Virus record (IMG/VR): IMGVR_UViG_3300032225_001126
Span: 1 to 46,571 of that record
Origin: a virus
Taxonomy: Duplodnaviria > Caudoviricetes
Strand: one strand, 5' to 3'
DNA length: 46,571 nucleotides
The notes under the pieces were generated by a model, which worked only from the letters and a program-made list of their open reading frames with translations, did no database searches and was not told the DNA's origin. Positions 1 through 9,550 of this stretch are shown here, in pieces (positions within the stretch are counted from its first letter, which is position 1; each line of letters begins with the position of its first letter). The position numbers were made by a program, and so were the translations under genes.

Positions 1-102
1 GTCGATTCGGATCATCCGCAAGTGTTTATTAAAAAGCGTGATGACTATATTAAAGATTTTATTTCTTACCGTGAAGCATATGATGGAGTTTTATATGAAT
101 AG
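1..102 (+). CDS. 3' end of probable exonuclease (PD-(D/E)XK/Cas4-like, T4-like phage type), truncated by window edge
   Basis: Frame 1 reads VDSDHPQVFIKKRDDYIKDFISYREAYDGVLYE*. The PQVF-x-K-x-RDDYI tail resembles the C-terminus of the exonuclease found upstream of gp33 in aquatic T4-like phages. Only 33 codons are visible. Confidence 0.5.
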   Translation, partial: VDSDHPQVFIKKRDDYIKDFISYREAYDGVLYE

Positions 103-124
103 AATGTATGATGATGTTCGAATC

Positions 125-158
125 TTGCGCCATTTGTAAAATAATGATATACTAAATA
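125..158 (+). promoter_or_regulatory. sigma70-type promoter overlapping a T4 late-type box, driving the tmRNA gene
   Basis: TTGCGC (125-130), 17-bp spacer, extended TG (145-146), TATACT (148-153). ACTAAATA (151-158) resembles the late consensus TATAAATA. Confidence 0.65.
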
Positions 159-159
159 T

Positions 160-455
160 TCTGAATGGTAGTAAACTGATTTTTAGAAAGGTATTTCGGA
201 CGTGGGTGCGAATCCCACCAAGTCCACCAGAAGCATATTAATACCCGAACCTAGGCGGGGACCACAAAGAGACCTAGTATGCTTCTGATGGGCTTGACTA
301 GATTCGACGGGATAATAAGTACAATTATTGGCTACTCGACATATCAGTCGTTAAAAATAAATCAAGTAAACGCAAACGATAGCGAATACAGATTAGCAGC
401 ATAAACACTGCTTAGGGTTTCGGTGGGCTTCCTCGTAACAGAATAACCTACCACT
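160..455 (+). ncRNA. ssrA: Circularly permuted two-piece tmRNA (acceptor piece ~160-229, intervening segment 230-289, coding piece 290-~455)
   Basis: T-arm GTGGG-TGCGAAT-CCCAC (202-218) and acceptor 3' strand CAAGTCC-A-CCA (219-229) lie upstream of the 5' strand GGGCTTG (290-296). These pair 7/7 with a G3-U wobble (Ala identity). D-loop-like ACTAGATTCGAC at 297-308. CGGGATA (308-314) pairs with TATTTCG (192-198). Tag ORF 372-404 = ANDSEYRLAA*. 3' hairpin GGTGGG (422-427)/CCTACC (447-452). Confidence 0.93.
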
Positions 456-1988: not shown

Positions 1989-3029
1989 ATGAGTAAAGTT
2001 GCATTGATTACTGGTATTACTGGTCAAGACGGAAGCTATCTCGCAGAACTTCTACTTGACAAAGGATACGAAGTTCATGGAATTGTTAGGCGTTCTAGCA
2101 CTGGTATTAATACTAGTAATATTGAATCCATCAAGCATAAAATCAAATTTCATTATGGCGATTTGACTGATTCTGCAAATCTAGAATCCATCATTGTCAA
2201 AGTAAAACCAGATGAGGTTTATAATCTTGGTGCACAAAGTCACGTTAGCGTAAGCTATGATTGTCCAACATACACTGGTGATGTAAATGCAATCGGTGTT
2301 TTGAAATTACTTGAAGCTATTAAGACGCTTGCGAAAGAAAAGCAAGTAAAGTTTTATCAAGCATCAACAAGTGAATTGTATGGCAAAGTAAAAGAGACTC
2401 CACAAACAGAAGCTACTACATTTTATCCACGATCACCATACGCTGTAGCTAAACTCTACGGCTATTGGATTGTTGTAAACTATCGCGAAAGTTTTAATCT
2501 CTTCGCATGTAATGGCATTCTATTCAATCATGAAAGTCCGCGACGTGGACCAGAGTTCGTTACTCGAAAGATCGTTCAAGGAATGATTCGTACCCATCTA
2601 GGCTTGCAACCAATTCTTCAATTGGGAAATCTAAATGCTCGCCGTGATTGGGGTCACGCTAAAGATTATGTCCGCGCAATGTGGGCAATGCTACAACAAG
2701 ACAAGCCAGACGATTATGTTATCTCCAGCGACGAAGAGCATTCGGTTCGCGATTTTTGTGAAGATGTTGCAGAGTATCTTGGATTTAAAATTGAATGGCG
2801 TGGTGAAGGATTGAATGAAGTCGGTATCAACACTTCGACTGGCGAGAAAATTATTGAAGTGAATAAAGACTTTTATCGTCCAGCAGAAGTACCAACAATT
2901 TTTGGAGATTGCAGTAAAGCTAAGAAAGTGTTAAACTGGAGACCAGAGTACACTTTTAAAGACTTGGTATTCGAAATGTGTGAAACTGAAATGGAGAAAC
3001 AGAAAAATGCAAATCTACGAAAGTCCTGA
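1989..3029 (+). CDS. gmd: GDP-mannose 4,6-dehydratase
   Basis: [77 protein letters not shown]: all diagnostic of Gmd. Confidence 0.97.
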
Positions 3030-3867
3030 CAAAGGAAAAACAATTTACAAAAGAGAATTCGGTTCACTAGAAAAAATTCTAGTTAAATCACCAGAAAAAA
3101 AAGTCGTTCTAGTTACTGGTGGATTTGATCCACTTCATTCTGGGCATCTCGCATACTTCAAAGCTGCTAAAGAACTTGGAGATATACTTGTTGTTGGTAT
3201 TAACTCGGATTCTTGGTTGAAGAGAAAAAAAGGTCGTTCATTCTATACTTGGGATGAACGATTTCAATTGATTAAGAATTTGGAAATGGTAGATTACGTT
3301 ATCGAATTTAACGATGACGGAAACAATTCAATCAATGCAATCAAACAAGTTTCCGAAAAATTTTCTAATGCAAAAATTATTTTCGCAAATGGTGGAGATC
3401 GAACAGCAGACAACATTCCAGAAATGGGATTGCTTGATGATGAGCAATATAAAACCAACTTAGAGTTTGCATTCTCCGTTGGCGGTGACAATAAAATGAA
3501 TTCATCTTCATGGATTCTTGAAGAATGGAAAGCACCTAAGACTAATAGGTCGTGGGGATATTATAGAGTTTTGCATGAACAAGACAAAGAAATTAAAGTG
3601 AAAGAATTGACGATTGAGCCAAAAACATGTTTGAGTATGCAAAGGCATAAGAATCGTGCGGAGCATTGGTTTGTTGCGGAAGGCACAGCTTCAGTATATA
3701 CTTTAAATTCTGATATTGAACTAGTTGGAAATTTTAATAAATTTGAATGTCTACATATCGATAAAGAACAATGGCACAAACTCTGTAACGAAACAGATAA
3801 TCCATTGAGAATTATTGAAATACAGTATGGCGAAAATTGCGTTGAAGAGGATATTGAAAGAAAATGA
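3007..3867 (+). CDS. Fusion of an HxGH cytidylyl/nucleotidyltransferase (RfaE/TagD-like) and a type II mannose-6-phosphate isomerase cupin (start reassigned to ATG 3007)
   Basis: [26 protein letters not shown] in the N-terminal part. [32 protein letters not shown] (ManC C-terminal cupin) in the C-terminal part. GGAG at 2993-2996. Confidence 0.88.
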
Positions 3868-4262
3868 TGTTAATACCCGGAAGTGTCGGTGATCTATTTG
3901 ATCGAATTACAATTCTTCAAATCAAAATGCTTGAAATCAAAGATGAAGCAAAGTTAAACAATATTGAGAAAGAACATCGTCTTTTAATTTCGCTAGATAC
4001 ATATAAGCAAACGAAAGATGTTGTTAATAAACTTTTTAATGAACTATTCGTTGTAAATTACAAAATCTGGAATCTTGAGGATGATATTCGTGACCTAATT
4101 GCTGCACAATCTTATGGCGAATACTTTATTAATGTCGCTAAGTTGATTCCAAAAACTAACGATGAACGTGCAAGAATTAAGAAAGAAATTAATCTAATTT
4201 GTAATTCTGAATTGATTGAAGAGAAATCTTACCATGGAGAAACTAATGAAAAAACTACTTGA
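3864..4262 (+). CDS. DUF6165-like helical protein associated with glycosylation loci
   Basis: SVGDLFDRITILQIK, IWNLEDDIR, NDERARIKKEIN, EEKSY pattern. Translationally coupled to its neighbours. Confidence 0.7.
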   Translation: MMLIPGSVGDLFDRITILQIKMLEIKDEAKLNNIEKEHRLLISLDTYKQTKDVVNKLFNELFVVNYKIWNLEDDIRDLIAAQSYGEYFINVAKLIPKTNDERARIKKEINLICNSELIEEKSYHGETNEKTT

Positions 4263-5475
4263 ACTTGGAAATCATTATGTAAGTGATTTCATCAAAGACG
4301 ATAGCGAAATGCGAGATCGACCGAAATATAGTCTCGATTTATATCTTGATGAAGAATTAGGTGCGCCACGTTTAGATCCAAAAGATATTGCTCCACCATC
4401 TACTATGTGGGGCAAGTATTGGTATCGTAGCGCAATCAATACAAGCATGACACTTGAATTGCAAGGTATCGTAAAAGAAATTACATCCCGCGTTAAGTTG
4501 AAAGACGATGACATTTGGCTTGATATTGCATGTAATGATGGAACGCTATTAAAAGCGGTTCCAGACAATCTAAACAAAGTCGGTATCGATCCTTGCGACG
4601 ATTCATTCTATGCAGAAAGTAGCAAAGTCGCAACAGTTGTGCAAGATTACTTTACTAAATCTGCATGGGAAAGAACTAAATTTGCTGGTAAGAAAGCAAA
4701 AGTCATTACTTGTATTGCAATGTTTTATGACCTAGATGATCCGCATCCATTTGTAAAAGACATGTATGATGTTCTTGATGACGATGGAGTTGCTGTTCTT
4801 CAAATGAGTTATACACCTTTGATGATTAATCAACTAGCATTTGATAACATTTGCCATGAGCATGTTTACTACTATGATTTGAAGAGTATTCATAAGTTGT
4901 TCTCTCAGCATGGATTCCGTATTGTTGATTGTAGTTTGAATGATACTAACGGTGGAAGTTTTAGAATCTATTTCCAAAAAGACACTGCATCAATTACAAG
5001 TTTCGGATCATCACCTTTGCGCGATGTTTGTGACTATCGTGTAGAATCAATCCTTAACTATGAGAACAATGTGGTTGACATTTCAAGTCCAATCATTTGG
5101 AATTCATTCAAGCACCGACTTGACGATTTGAAAGTTGATGTTCTTGAATTCATCGACAATGCGAAGAGCAAAGGTAAGAGCGTGTATGGCTATGGCGCAA
5201 GCACCAAAGGCAATACATTGCTACAATACTTTGGTATTGATCATACGCATGTTACAGCAATTGCAGAGCGCAGTCCATACAAGTTTGGTTACAAAACAGT
5301 TGGTTCAAATATTCCCATCATCAGCGAAGATGAAATGCGAAAAGCAAAGCCAGATTATGCTTTGGTTCTTCCCTGGCATTTCATTAGTGAGTTTCAAGTA
5401 AGAGAGAAAGCATTTCTGGATGCAGGTGGTGCGTTTATCGTTCCTTGTCCAGTTTTTGAAATTATCTCTAAATGA
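4246..5475 (+). CDS. NDP-sugar C-methyltransferase (TylCIII/NovU/TcaB9-like) (start reassigned to ATG 4246)
   Basis: YWYRS, LDIACNDGTLL, GIDP, FDNICHEHVYYY, NGGSFR, GYGASTKGNTLL, LPWHF..E, GGAFIVPCP. GGAG at 4236-4239. Confidence 0.9.
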   Translation: MKKLLELGNHYVSDFIKDDSEMRDRPKYSLDLYLDEELGAPRLDPKDIAPPSTMWGKYWYRSAINTSMTLELQGIVKEITSRVKLKDDDIWLDIACNDGTLLKAVPDNLNKVGIDPCDDSFYAESSKVATVVQDYFTKSAWERTKFAGKKAKVITCIAMFYDLDDPHPFVKDMYDVLDDDGVAVLQMSYTPLMINQLAFDNICHEHVYYYDLKSIHKLFSQHGFRIVDCSLNDTNGGSFRIYFQKDTASITSFGSSPLRDVCDYRVESILNYENNVVDISSPIIWNSFKHRLDDLKVDVLEFIDNAKSKGKSVYGYGASTKGNTLLQYFGIDHTHVTAIAERSPYKFGYKTVGSNIPIISEDEMRKAKPDYALVLPWHFISEFQVREKAFLDAGGAFIVPCPVFEIISK

Positions 5476-6389
5476 ACATCACCAATGTAACATTCTTCAA
5501 TCGTTGGAGAAATGGTGACTGCTTTATCAATAAAGAATACGTTAGGGATATCATTTCAAGATACCCTAACGGAATCACTTTTAAATATGCTCATGATAAT
5601 CATCCAAACATTGTTTCGGATTTGAATTGTGAGCATGTTTCTTTAAGTTCAATTCATCCGATTGGTACGTTTACTCCACTAGCACAAGTGGAGAATATTC
5701 TTTACATCAACACTTGGGTTGGCTGTTGGATTGGTAAACATCTAAAAGAAAAAGATCATGCAAATTTTTATTGTTTGCATGATATGTGGAAAGAATTTTA
5801 TCAAGCATTGAATCTAGAAATGAAGGGAGATTATTCATATTATCATCCTTCTATCGATTTTAGAAAGTTTGATCTTACAGAAGCAAATAACTATTTGCTT
5901 AGAATTGATCCTAAAGAAATCATTTTAATTTGTAACGGCGTTCAACAAAGCGAACAAAGTAGCATGGGTGATATGCGAAACATTATTATTGGACTTGCTA
6001 CAAAGTTTCCAGAAAAAGAGTTTCTTATTACACATAAAGTTGATGCTGAATTGTCAAACGTAACATGTACTGACTATTTGTTTTCTTCTTCCACTGGAAA
6101 TCTAAATCAAATTGCATTTCTAAGTCTGTTCGCTAAATTAATTATTGGAAAGAATAGTGGTCCGTTCACTTATGCACATATTAAAGAAAACATGAATAAC
6201 TATCAAAAAACATTCATGTGCTTTTCACATAAGATGAGAGATTGTTTGATGGGTGAAGGTGAATACTTAGCAAATTCATTCTTTAGTGATACTATTGATG
6301 ATAATAAAGCAATTGAAATTTGTGAAAATTTAATACAATATCCATCGTATGCAAATTATAAAAAGCCCACTAAGGAGCTATTTGAATGA
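5472..6389 (+). CDS. Putative GT-B glycosyltransferase, GT9 (heptosyltransferase)-like
   Basis: N-terminal NGD motif and LNQIAFLSLFAKLIIGKNSGPFTYA, which resembles the GT9 motif (l.igndSGpmHlA). Operon context supports this. Confidence 0.55.
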   Translation: MNITNVTFFNRWRNGDCFINKEYVRDIISRYPNGITFKYAHDNHPNIVSDLNCEHVSLSSIHPIGTFTPLAQVENILYINTWVGCWIGKHLKEKDHANFYCLHDMWKEFYQALNLEMKGDYSYYHPSIDFRKFDLTEANNYLLRIDPKEIILICNGVQQSEQSSMGDMRNIIIGLATKFPEKEFLITHKVDAELSNVTCTDYLFSSSTGNLNQIAFLSLFAKLIIGKNSGPFTYAHIKENMNNYQKTFMCFSHKMRDCLMGEGEYLANSFFSDTIDDNKAIEICENLIQYPSYANYKKPTKELFE

Positions 6390-7324
6390 AAAATGTATTA
6401 TTAGTTACTGGTGAATCTAAAGAATGTGGCATCTATCAATATGCGGATTCTATCTTTGAAATTCTAAAGACTTCGACAAAATATGAATTTGATTTTCTTG
6501 CAACAAATGATAAACAAGATTTGTATAATCATTTAGAAGAAAATGATATAGTAGCAATCATTTACAATCATCATCCACATACGATGAATTGGTTGAATAG
6601 CGGTGTAACTCGACCAATTAATAGTGCTGGTCTTGTGAAGCAAATTGTTATTTTTGGACATGAACATCTAAACACATTTACTGGCGTAGATCATTATATA
6701 CACACCGATCCGAATGCCAATCATAATGATTTTCTTGCATCAGGCGAGTTTGCTGGAATTCCGCCAATCACATACTATGATGACATTCAATATAGTGAGC
6801 CTAAAGGAACGATTCGAATTGGAACTAGTGGAATCGGCAATCGAACTAAAGACTTGCCAACATTAATTCGATTAATCAATGAACAATTCACAGAAGATGT
6901 GATTCTAAATCTACATGTTTCTGATGGCGTGTTTGTTGATCCTACTGGTAAACTATCTGGCGCATTAGTGGATCAATGTTTGGAACTTGCAAATAGCAAT
7001 GTGAAAATTAATTTCACTAGAGATTTTCTATCCAAAAAAGATTTAATCTCTTGGTTAAATCAAAATGATATTAATTTGTATTGGTACCAGACTCCAGAAG
7101 TTCCGGGAGTCTCCGGATCTATTGATCGTGCATTAGCATCAAGAAAACCATTTGGTGTAAATCATTCCAGCTTCCTTTCACATGTAAGAAGAGATTTTAA
7201 CGATTTGACAAAAGTATCAATTAAAGATATAATTGCTGCTGGTATTGAGCCACTTCAGGAATTCTATGACGCATGGAATCCAACAAATCTTTTAAATCTT
7301 TATGAAGGCATAATCGAAAAATGA
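6386..7324 (+). CDS. Putative GT-B glycosyltransferase (GT4-like), paralog of 8286-9272
   Basis: N-terminal ECGIYQY and C-terminal SGSIDRALASRKPFGV, resembling the GT4 donor-binding helix. Operon context. Confidence 0.6.
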   Translation: MKNVLLVTGESKECGIYQYADSIFEILKTSTKYEFDFLATNDKQDLYNHLEENDIVAIIYNHHPHTMNWLNSGVTRPINSAGLVKQIVIFGHEHLNTFTGVDHYIHTDPNANHNDFLASGEFAGIPPITYYDDIQYSEPKGTIRIGTSGIGNRTKDLPTLIRLINEQFTEDVILNLHVSDGVFVDPTGKLSGALVDQCLELANSNVKINFTRDFLSKKDLISWLNQNDINLYWYQTPEVPGVSGSIDRALASRKPFGVNHSSFLSHVRRDFNDLTKVSIKDIIAAGIEPLQEFYDAWNPTNLLNLYEGIIEK

Positions 7325-8289
7325 AAAGTGCATTAGTATTGGGTGGTGGAGGATTTATCGGCGGTCACATGGTTAGTCGATTAAAGAGTGAAGGTTATTA
7401 TGTTCGTGCTGTAGATAAGAAAACACACGAATATAAAAATCTAAACGCTGATGAATTTTTTCTTGCTGATCTAACAGAACAAAGCGAAGTTCAGCGTGTC
7501 ATTAATAGGCATTTCGATGAAGTGTATCAGCTGGCTGCAGACATGGGTGGCGCAGGATATATTAATACAAATCTTTATGACGCAGACGTTATGCATAATA
7601 GCGCAAGTATTAATCTAAACGTACTCCATCGATGCAAAGAGATGGGAATTAAAAAAGTATTCTTTAGTAGTAGTGCTTGCGTCTATAACGAAGAGTTGCA
7701 GTCTACGAATGAGAATCCAGACTGCAGAGAAGCAAGTGCTTATCCAGCGCATCCAGACTCTGAATACGGTTGGGAGAAATTATTCTCAGAAAGATTGTTT
7801 CATGCATACAATCGTCAACATGGAATGCAAAACAAAGTAGCGCGGTTTCACAATATCTTTGGTCCGTACGGTACATGGGACGGAGGAAAAGAAAAGTTTC
7901 CAGCAGCTATTTGTAGAAAGATTGCAAAAGCAAAAGATGGTGATGAAATTGAAATTTGGGGTGACGGAGAACAAACAAGAAGTTTTCTATACATTGGAGA
8001 ATGCATCGAAGCTGTTCGACGTTTGATGCAAAGTGAAACATTTCATGGTCCAGTCAATATTGGCGCAGATCAAATGATTAGCATTAATGATACGGTAGAT
8101 CTTGTTGCGAAAATTGCCGGCAAGACAATTCGCAAGAAACACATTGATGGCCCGACTGGCGTTCGTGGTCGCAATAGCAACAATGAATTGATTGCAGAAA
8201 AGTTGAATTGGTCTCCAGAACAAAATCTTCGCGAAGGTCTAGAGACTACATACGGCTGGATTTATGAGCAAGTAGGAAAACAAAAATGA
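7321..8289 (+). CDS. GDP-mannose 3,5-epimerase (GME)-like extended SDR
   Basis: GGGGFIG, LAADMGGAGYI, SSACVY, PDSEYGWEKL, RFHNIFGP, GGKEKFPAAICRK, WGDGEQTRSF, GVRGRNS are GME-family signatures. Confidence 0.92.
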   Translation: MKSALVLGGGGFIGGHMVSRLKSEGYYVRAVDKKTHEYKNLNADEFFLADLTEQSEVQRVINRHFDEVYQLAADMGGAGYINTNLYDADVMHNSASINLNVLHRCKEMGIKKVFFSSSACVYNEELQSTNENPDCREASAYPAHPDSEYGWEKLFSERLFHAYNRQHGMQNKVARFHNIFGPYGTWDGGKEKFPAAICRKIAKAKDGDEIEIWGDGEQTRSFLYIGECIEAVRRLMQSETFHGPVNIGADQMISINDTVDLVAKIAGKTIRKKHIDGPTGVRGRNSNNELIAEKLNWSPEQNLREGLETTYGWIYEQVGKQK

Positions 8290-9272
8290 AAACTAAAGTT
8301 CTATTTGTTACACAAACACTTGGAGCAAAGGCTGCATGTGGAATTGGCTTGATGGGTGATGTGACTGGTAAAGTGCTATTGCAACATCCAGAATTGCATT
8401 TCGATATGATCTACACAGATAGTATGCATGAAACGCAACAAAAAATTCTATCATTTGATCCACAAGTTGTAATTTACAATTATGCTCCAGGAACTACTCC
8501 GTGGATGGATGACTATCAAATGCGAGCACCATTTCCACATATCAAACATGCAAGAATCATGCATGATATGAGCCAGTCAATTGCTAATTCATTTAGACCA
8601 GAAATGAATCATGGTTGGCAATTTATAATTGCAGATGATCCTAGCGTAAAAGAAACGAAGCATGTATTTACAACGAATCGATTGCTTCCTGGAGCTCCAA
8701 CCGTATCTTATGTTGAACCAAAGAAACCTATCATTGGATTTCAAGGCTTCGGACCACCACATAAAGGTATCGCTAGACTAGCACATAAGGTGCAAGAAGA
8801 ATTTGATGAAGCTACACTAAGATTACATATTCCTTTTGGATTCTACGAAGATTTGATTCATGGCTACAAAGGAAGCAATGCATATGCTCGCGTAAACGAA
8901 GTGAAGCAAATCATCACAAAACCAGGAATTGATGTTATAATTACGCACGACCTTTTAGATACGCAACAAATTATCGATCTATTAGCACAAAACACCATTA
9001 ATTGTTATTTCTACGATTACTTAGATGGAGCCGGATTAGCAAGTAGTCCAGATTATGCGTTGGCAGCAAAGCGACCAATCGCGGTGACAAGAAGTTATCA
9101 AATGCGAAACTATTGGGATCTTGAACCAAGCGTATTGATTGAAAATAGTAGCATCAAGCAGATCATTGCAAATGGAACAGCTCCACTGGAACCATTATAT
9201 AAAGCATATAGTAAAGAGAGTGTCTGGCAAGATTACACCCGTGTGGTAAATGCAATGTTGACTTCAGCGTAA
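8286..9272 (+). CDS. Putative GT-B glycosyltransferase (GT4-like)
   Basis: ACGIG, FQGFGPPHKG, ASSPDYALAAKRPIAVT. Colinear similarity to 6386-7324. Confidence 0.6.
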   Translation: MKTKVLFVTQTLGAKAACGIGLMGDVTGKVLLQHPELHFDMIYTDSMHETQQKILSFDPQVVIYNYAPGTTPWMDDYQMRAPFPHIKHARIMHDMSQSIANSFRPEMNHGWQFIIADDPSVKETKHVFTTNRLLPGAPTVSYVEPKKPIIGFQGFGPPHKGIARLAHKVQEEFDEATLRLHIPFGFYEDLIHGYKGSNAYARVNEVKQIITKPGIDVIITHDLLDTQQIIDLLAQNTINCYFYDYLDGAGLASSPDYALAAKRPIAVTRSYQMRNYWDLEPSVLIENSSIKQIIANGTAPLEPLYKAYSKESVWQDYTRVVNAMLTSA

Positions 9273-9286: not shown

Positions 9287-9310
9287 TATCCTTTGTTCAA
9301 TAGGAAAAAT

Positions 9311-9550
9311 ATGAATCTTAAAATTCTAACTCAAAAAGAGTTTGAAGGAGAAATCAAATCCTTGCAAAAACAGCTACAACCAATTACAATGATAGACACG
9401 ATTCTAGAATATTGTGAACGGAAGAAGATTGAAGTTGAAACAGCGGCCGCACTCATTACACCAAAAATGAAAGCTACGATTGAAAGCGAAGCAATGAAAG
9501 CTAGATTGATTCCCCAAAAAGCAAGACTACCACTAGACGATGAGGACTAA
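9311..9550 (+). CDS. gp33: Late promoter transcription coactivator gp33 (start reassigned to ATG 9311)
   Basis: F..EI, MIDTILEYCE..IEVE.AA.LI...MK..IE.EA, and an acidic-hydrophobic clamp-binding-type tail (ARLPLDDED). AGGA SD before 9311. Position upstream of gp32. Confidence 0.88.
   Translation: MNLKILTQKEFEGEIKSLQKQLQPITMIDTILEYCERKKIEVETAAALITPKMKATIESEAMKARLIPQKARLPLDDED

Follow-up and report, generated by a model that had tools for sequence, protein, structure and literature searches.

Here we report an intact permuted ssrA gene in an uncultured T4-like phage, which is likely to yield a functional two-piece tmRNA that adds to ribosome rescue in the infected cell. The window, by which we mean the whole stretch of DNA analysed (46,571 nt), is an entire 46.6-kb viral contig that is ∼27% complete and carries T4-like genes for gp33, gp32, baseplate, tail and head-tail adaptor proteins. 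A permuted tmRNA had been claimed in the first-pass annotation of this sequence, and the claim is borne out by the anatomy of the gene, by ARAGORN and by the Rfam model RF04321. Its description as phage-encoded and functional-looking also agrees with what the sequence offers, namely a T4-like contig and helices that covary. As to the question raised there of whether the lineage is already catalogued, phage two-piece tmRNAs as a class have been published (PMC9004378), and the window gene is a further example of that class.

Detection, anatomy and putative expression signals

ARAGORN called a permuted tmRNA at positions 137-495 with the tag ANDSEYRLAA, and returned no calls on 100 dinucleotide shuffles of the whole window. 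RF04321 scored 119.6 bits (cut-off 47, E 4e-24), making tmRNA the sole Rfam family at cut-off in the window; no known RNA family reached cut-off in the spacers. Among the three subtype models the best was the beta form RF01850 (96.1 bits, cut-off 84), with a margin of only 8 bits over the alpha form RF01849 (88.3 bits, cut-off 50). The subtype comparison suggested at first pass thus placed beta and alpha above cut-off and the cyanobacterial form RF01851 below it (29.1 versus 70 bits), and we rejected the latter as an assignment. The standard one-piece model RF00023 gave 11 bits, under its cut-off of 47.

All parts of the gene lie on the forward strand in permuted order, the tRNA-like 3′ half preceding a spacer and then the 5′ half. 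The predicted acceptor piece (165-229, its 5′ end being placed by promoter spacing) contains the 5′ strand of the closing helix (167-172), a T-arm (202-218) with its stem (202-206/214-218) and the loop UGCGAAU (207-213), in which G208 is position 55, followed by the acceptor 3′ strand CAAGUCC (219-225) and ACCA (226-229). After the 60-nt intervening spacer (230-289), the 5′ part of the coding piece (290-371) begins with the acceptor 5′ strand GGGCUUG (290-296), continues with the D-loop-like A300-G301, equivalent to A18/G19, the 3′ strand of the closing helix (331-336) and a hairpin (337-350), and includes the resume context UAAAC. The tag reading frame (372-404), read from the sequence and by ARAGORN, runs open from GCA to UAA and encodes ANDSEYRLAA, ending in small hydrophobic residues before the stop. 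A stop-codon hairpin (395-412, pairs 395-399/408-412) and a 3′-terminal hairpin with an AACAGAA loop motif (422-455, 92% of cells paired) complete the coding piece, which is predicted to end with the latter. All seven acceptor-stem pairs form, with G292-U223 as G3-U70, alongside A73 and CCA; the tag and the G3-U acceptor pairing noted at first pass were therefore both found in the sequence (372-404; 290-296/219-225). The predicted pieces of ∼65-70 nt and ∼165 nt are of sizes that fit this anatomy.

A spacer stem (228-239/276-287) encloses a small variable core and takes in the CA of CCA as well. Positions 226-229 face 286-289 in the precursor, such that the terminal UGAU of the spacer pairs with this CA; the same UGAU ending recurs in many phage permuted tmRNAs, and the pairing may set the order of processing. 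We also spotted by eye a possible spacer pseudoknot (244-247/256-259 with 251-255/273-277) that competes with the spacer stem. Free co-folding of the two strands did not return the canonical structure.

A T-arm pattern search of IMG/VR found 74 loci, 53 of which ARAGORN called permuted, and 11 IMG/VR loci match the window at 80-87% identity over at least 300 nt. In an alignment of 12 rows (11 distinct) with 47 pairs taken from an RNAalifold consensus, 98.6% of cells pair on the distinct rows, compared with 32-45% in slid controls. Seven pairs change on both sides, a count matched by 1 of 500 shuffles, which is not to be read as a probability because the rows are close kin: three lie in the spacer stem and two among the five pairs of the stop-codon hairpin, while the terminal hairpin has one and so does the acceptor stem, where covariation among homologs had been suggested as a check. 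As the rows are closely related and the structure was derived from them, these changes support selection on the fold, yet leave it unmeasured. Across the clade, the start of the tag keeps AND and its end stays hydrophobic (-LAA or -LVA), the variants in relatives being ANDSEYALAA, ANDSEYRLVA, AANDSEYRLAA and AANDSEYALAA.

Upstream of the gene lies a putative sigma-70-type early promoter (125-153, forward strand) with a weak -35 element TTGCGC (125-130), a 17-nt spacer and an extended -10 element TG-N-TATACT (145-153). A consensus scan gave no early promoter call; at the same place in relatives, TTGACA-17-TATACT occurs in 4 of 11 distinct sequences and TG-N-TATACT in 6 of 11. Overlapping the -10 element is a putative T4-type late promoter variant, ACTAAATA (151-158, forward strand), whose TAAATA core is invariant in 12/12 aligned rows and was found in 16/16 distinct alleles, with the overlapping TATACT in nine of the 16; two relatives (L003 and L033) carry TATAAATA at this site. 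In the window, ATAAATA lies less than 70 nt from an ORF start in 8 of 19 occurrences, against 0.54 expected, which is the pattern of a T4 late promoter; the tmRNA gene's own variant CTAAATA is so placed in none of its seven occurrences. From these motifs, both early and late transcription of the tmRNA gene appear likely.

Affinities and origin of the gene

The accessible text of Buchholz et al. (2022; PMC9004378) reports tmRNA in 402 of 18,146 phages, 133 of them unique and 53 two-piece by ARAGORN, and permuted forms in 17 of 47 Melnitz-related contigs. It also describes 50 of the 53 two-piece forms as aquatic; we have not relied on this figure, since Table S1 of the same paper lists many permuted rows as human or soil. 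In the portions available to us, Nawrocki et al. (2025; PMC11915505) include 79 phage sequences in a database of 97,179 with viral input from RefSeq only, and Hudson et al. (2014; PMC4131195) list ten phages.

Two T4-like phages, the Methylophilales phage Melnitz (MZ577098.1) and the Pelagibacter phage Mosig (MT647606.1), have a complete permuted ssrA like that of the window, in the same region (PD-(D/E)XK nuclease ... ssrA ... gp33 ... gp32), and share its A18/G55 elbow and AACAGAA terminal hairpin. Unlike in the window, where a SleB gene and ∼9 kb intervene, their ssrA lies directly upstream of gp33, and both score best on the alpha model whereas the window gene scores best on beta. Identity over the mature RNA is 46% to Melnitz and 52% to Mosig. 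The glutamine riboswitch of Melnitz was sought in the window and is absent from it.

In tRNA numbering, positions 18 and 55 make the tertiary contact between the D-loop and the T-loop. Across 160 distinct sequences, after unparsable loci had been dropped, this pair is A/G in 47 and G/U in 113 with no mixed cases; in a wider viral set 1 of 41 is mixed (L355). A18/G55 is carried by 29 alpha sequences, ten rows of the clade including the window, six other phages, Melnitz and Mosig, and G18/U55 by 81 beta sequences, seven from Cupriavidus and 25 from phages. The alpha subtype shares A18/G55 with the window (29/29 distinct sequences); it was rejected as an assignment on account of the T-loop, which has U54/A58 in the window in place of the G54/G58 found in 29/29 alpha sequences, and it differs further in its closing helix and in identity (at most 53%). 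Some close phage relatives of the window do have the alpha-type G54/G58 loop. With the beta form, which Sharkady and Williams reportedly described in 2004 from betaproteobacteria (Rhodocyclaceae and kin), the window gene has in common the permutation point, closing helix, following hairpin and side of the tree. It differs in its A18/G55 elbow (G18/U55 in 81/81 distinct beta sequences), in the absence of the model's second GC-rich terminal hairpin, in score (96.1 bits against up to 296 for chromosomal beta copies) and in identity (at most 55%). Given the elbow, we regard the gene as beta-like and no plain member of the beta subtype.

The nearest bacterial sequences are the second-copy ssrA genes of Cupriavidus with the tag ANDEKFALAA (60-62.5% identity), a permuted second copy that Mao et al. 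are said to have described in 2009. These have a GGGCCUG/CAGGUCC acceptor stem, as do most clade members, and similar short and terminal hairpins, and differ in their G18/U55 elbow, a 32-nt spacer and bacterial or plasmid carriers. They are also the best blastn matches, and match Cupriavidus plasmids too; overall, identity peaks at 63% with other phages, 62.5% with these Cupriavidus copies, 55% with beta and 53% with alpha. Two kinds of extra permuted ssrA occur in Cupriavidus genomes (L116, L142, L150, L160, L173; L088, L147, L151), the ANDEKFALAA copies being phage-like and ANDERFALAA copies nesting among Rhodocyclaceae-like genes, and this suggests that horizontal transfer has happened repeatedly.

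The first-pass annotation had raised the possibility of an independent, phage-specific permutation, and part of the evidence could be read that way. The clade forms a well-supported group (100/99) on a long branch, its best bacterial match is 62.5% identical, its scores on the beta and alpha models are alike modest, and blastn against 401 sampled genomes of the order produced only short hits, to the T-arm or by chance. Nevertheless, the window gene aligns with RF01850 from end to end, and the comparison of permutation points with the bacterial classes gave the same break point as that model, together with its closing helix and following hairpin. A coding-piece pattern, scanned over 48 of 64 parts of the genome collection, retrieved at least 120 genome loci, mostly from Rhodocyclaceae plus Cupriavidus, 88 of which were called permuted. 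In a tree of 108 spacer-less rows and 245 columns, with 29 of 81 beta rows kept, a starred split (96/88) separates the clade, beta bacteria and the Cupriavidus copies from alpha, Melnitz and Mosig; the beta side is itself poorly resolved. In the best tree the Cupriavidus copies are the sister group of the clade (79/95, not starred), and an AU test did not reject joining the clade to alpha (p 0.105). The tree is weak, because base composition in the clade is unlike the rest and the genes are mosaic. We consider a separate permutation in the phage extremely improbable. The end-to-end fit to the beta model and the side of the tree favour descent from an existing permuted pool, and the best explanation is that the gene belongs to a beta-side pool of permuted tmRNAs common to bacteria, plasmids and phages.

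An RF01850 search passed cut-off in at least 4 of 151 genomes, ten candidates being scored in each. None of the conclusions depends on the unpublished genomes G031, G384 and G449. Against 50,697 phage records, blastn with the locus gave only T-arm matches of 33-38 nt and a sister-clade gene gave no match, so that these searches returned no close relative in culture. A Magnetococcales locus matched by the beta-type pattern (L130:387-746) scores as standard one-piece tmRNA (RF00023, 114.9 bits), and the pattern also matches other Magnetococcales loci.

Genomic neighbourhood and mosaic alleles

The best matches of gp32 and gp33 are to cyano-, pelagi- and methylo-myophages, indicating only Kyanoviridae-like phages, and the lytic lifestyle assumed at first pass is suggested by T4-like gene content on a contig only 27% complete. 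Directly downstream of the tmRNA gene, as often in relatives, lies a gene for a SleB/CwlJ-type cell-wall hydrolase (PF07486; 479-970, forward strand), followed by small reverse-strand ORFs, a block of sugar-modification and unassigned genes, and the late-transcription coactivator gp33 (9293-9550, forward strand). The ∼9 kb between ssrA and gp33 thus holds sugar-modification and other genes; in some relatives gp33 lies within ∼1.5 kb of ssrA, and a shorter order is seen (PhoH, PD-(D/E)XK nuclease, ssrA, SleB, gp33, gp59, gp32). The forward-strand block at 1989-9272 comprises two nucleotide-sugar epimerase/dehydratase genes, a heptose adenylyltransferase-like gene, a DUF6165 gene, a C-methyltransferase gene and three ORFs of ∼300-330 aa without PHROG or Pfam matches. 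Near relatives lack 3094-3872 or differ in this block, which probably represents a variable island for glycan modification. On the reverse strand, two small ORFs of membrane type that are paralogues (961-1248 and 1612-1896; phrog_18771), one with a weak holin match, flank a 137-aa ORF; the set is convergent on the SleB hydrolase and is possibly lysis-related.

With respect to the host, SleB homologues came without host names, no host-specific gene was found among 56 selected ORFs (of 89 called) in an 89-kb relative (G004), and pqqA was present in 1 of 25 viral records and absent from the close clade of the window. That pqqA (L368; G548:C1:57595-57651) is in the 221-kb phage of locus L012, whose permuted tmRNA differs (ANENSYFEEFALAA). 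It hints that members of that group infect methylotrophs; the hint does not extend to the clade of the window.

The phages nearest by SleB (96-97%) have flanking DNA 90-93% identical to that of the window, and in three of them (L369, L370 and L371) the tmRNA gene occupies the same slot under the same promoter, each as a different allele. Four phages with flanks 90-93% identical thus have four alleles and two T-loop types. L371 has the T-loop of the window, another spacer and an RLVA tag; L370 has an alpha-type GGCAGUU loop on a 6-bp T-stem; and L369 (2593-2974, forward strand), the closest relative by SleB, combines an L370-type domain with a different closing-helix module. A further contig, L372, starts at the tmRNA 3′ end. 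The L369 allele scores 81.9 bits with RF04321 and was missed by ARAGORN, so surveys based on ARAGORN alone undercount. Compared with window positions 1-126, relatives (L369, L370 and L371) also have 300-470 nt of extra DNA ahead of the tmRNA promoter, inserted after the upstream gene that stops near 102; the window lacks this DNA, which includes a small ORF in L064 and L371.

Parsing 35 loci, dropping three partial ones and merging duplicates left 16 distinct alleles, among which each of the two tRNA-domain types is found in combination with either promoter layout, with spacer B and with two different tags. The 6-bp T-stem and alpha-type GGCAGUU loop also sit on an otherwise identical gene body in six loci (L312, L315, L321, L325, L333, L338). 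Alleles of near-identical phages thus differ by whole modules, the tRNA domain, the spacer, the closing helix and the tag each being exchanged as a unit. An individual allele could be a metagenomic chimera, but the majority of module types turn up on several contigs. Both tRNA-like halves are kept by the permutation within ∼130 nt around the spacer, and one short tract could thereby swap the whole elbow, the spacer or the closing helix with pairing intact. This nested layout would let a single tract replace both strands of a helix together, and recombination among close phages may be the means by which the nested parts are exchanged. Our searches, which covered the literature in part, found no published work dealing with this clade or describing the exchange of modules in phage tmRNA, and supplements outside that coverage may list the clade.

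The core 20-mer of the window's spacer has no match in IMG/VR. Another spacer type, absent from the window (L339-L367, for example L309/L341), has a near-invariant core of ∼60 nt; the 27-nt centre of this core gives 29 IMG/VR matches, all 29 inside permuted tmRNA spacers, and the surrounding tRNA domains vary widely (alpha-type, UUCGA, UGCAA and UGCGA loops). The core has no Rfam match and is a candidate small structured RNA.

Proposed function in phage infection

By analogy with bacterial two-piece tmRNA, as treated in the accessible part of PMC11915505, which is our basis for processing, piece pairing, alanylation and SmpB-dependent tagging, one precursor transcribed from the overlapping early and late promoters would lose its 60-nt spacer to host tRNA-processing enzymes, with RNase P acting at G290 and 3′ trimming to CCA-229 following. 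Pairing of the acceptor stem and closing helix would keep the two pieces together, the host alanyl-tRNA synthetase would charge the RNA via G3-U70, and host SmpB would bring it to stalled ribosomes, where ANDSEYRLAA would be added to the nascent protein ahead of its degradation. A search of 25 viral records, all of them fragments, turned up no SmpB gene, which fits the use of host SmpB. The purpose would, in our estimation, probably be added rescue capacity when phage translation runs high. At four loci with an 80-84% identical SleB gene there is no tmRNA in the 1.5-3 kb of upstream sequence available, and the gene may be dispensable or sited further away. Assembled contigs of one RNA run included none over positions 201-350, and the pieces matching 359-454, near the tag, are short and diverged, run into unrelated sequence and come from other tmRNAs; the contigs of three runs contained a 0.04-0.20 share of the words, and none shows the gene ends. 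This missing coverage counts neither for nor against expression.

A selective reason for keeping the gene, compatible with rescue and adding to it, would be that nucleases of the host cleave its tmRNA or tRNA-like RNAs in the course of infection, the phage copy serving as a spare part whose tRNA-like domain, spacer and tag diversify. Four alleles with two T-loop types amid 90-93% identical flanks, and a tRNA-domain type that varies against promoter type and two shared tags across the 16 alleles, are what such pressure might leave, and phage tRNAs have been reported to evade tRNA-cutting defences (PMC10264068 and PMC11555353, in the parts accessible to us). Such mosaicism is, however, also expected from ordinary recombination of co-infecting T4-like phages. 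The accessible part of PMC10264068 names tmRNA in its reference list only, and host ssrA stays fairly constant in T4 infection according to what is available of PMC13478754. We rate counter-defence an unlikely explanation. Slightly less probable is its extension, in which diversifying selection acts on the permuted ssrA as a nested cassette and alters the RNA faces recognised by host nucleases, with an excised spacer that carries small structured RNAs having a task of their own.

A different proposal is that the RNA does not simply add rescue capacity, and either titrates SmpB or has a tag that redirects proteolysis, for example to recycle host proteins. In the available parts of PMC4131195 and PMC11915505, host tmRNA is inhibited by a form reduced to the tRNA domain, as in phage DS6A, and Buchholz et al. 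propose, in the text accessible to us (PMC9004378), that phage tmRNA either maintains the hijacked machinery or tags host proteins selectively. In contrast to the DS6A form, the window gene includes the complete resume context and an open tag that ends in an ordinary LAA, and its stop-codon hairpin covaries; this decoy type was rejected as an assignment on finding the full tag, and we hold a decoy or redirector role to be very doubtful. Searches of the accessible part of the literature found no published functional test of a phage tmRNA beyond the DS6A-type result.

Ribosome rescue remains our preferred reading of the gene, which is itself useful mainly for annotation, ARAGORN having missed the allele of at least one relative (L369). 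If the nested-cassette idea were true, it would account for the preference of aquatic phages for the two-piece form. The clade constitutes a natural allele series on one backbone, with two T-loop types, at least five spacers, several tags and two promoter layouts, and such a series would make the ideas of rescue, decoy and counter-defence directly comparable.
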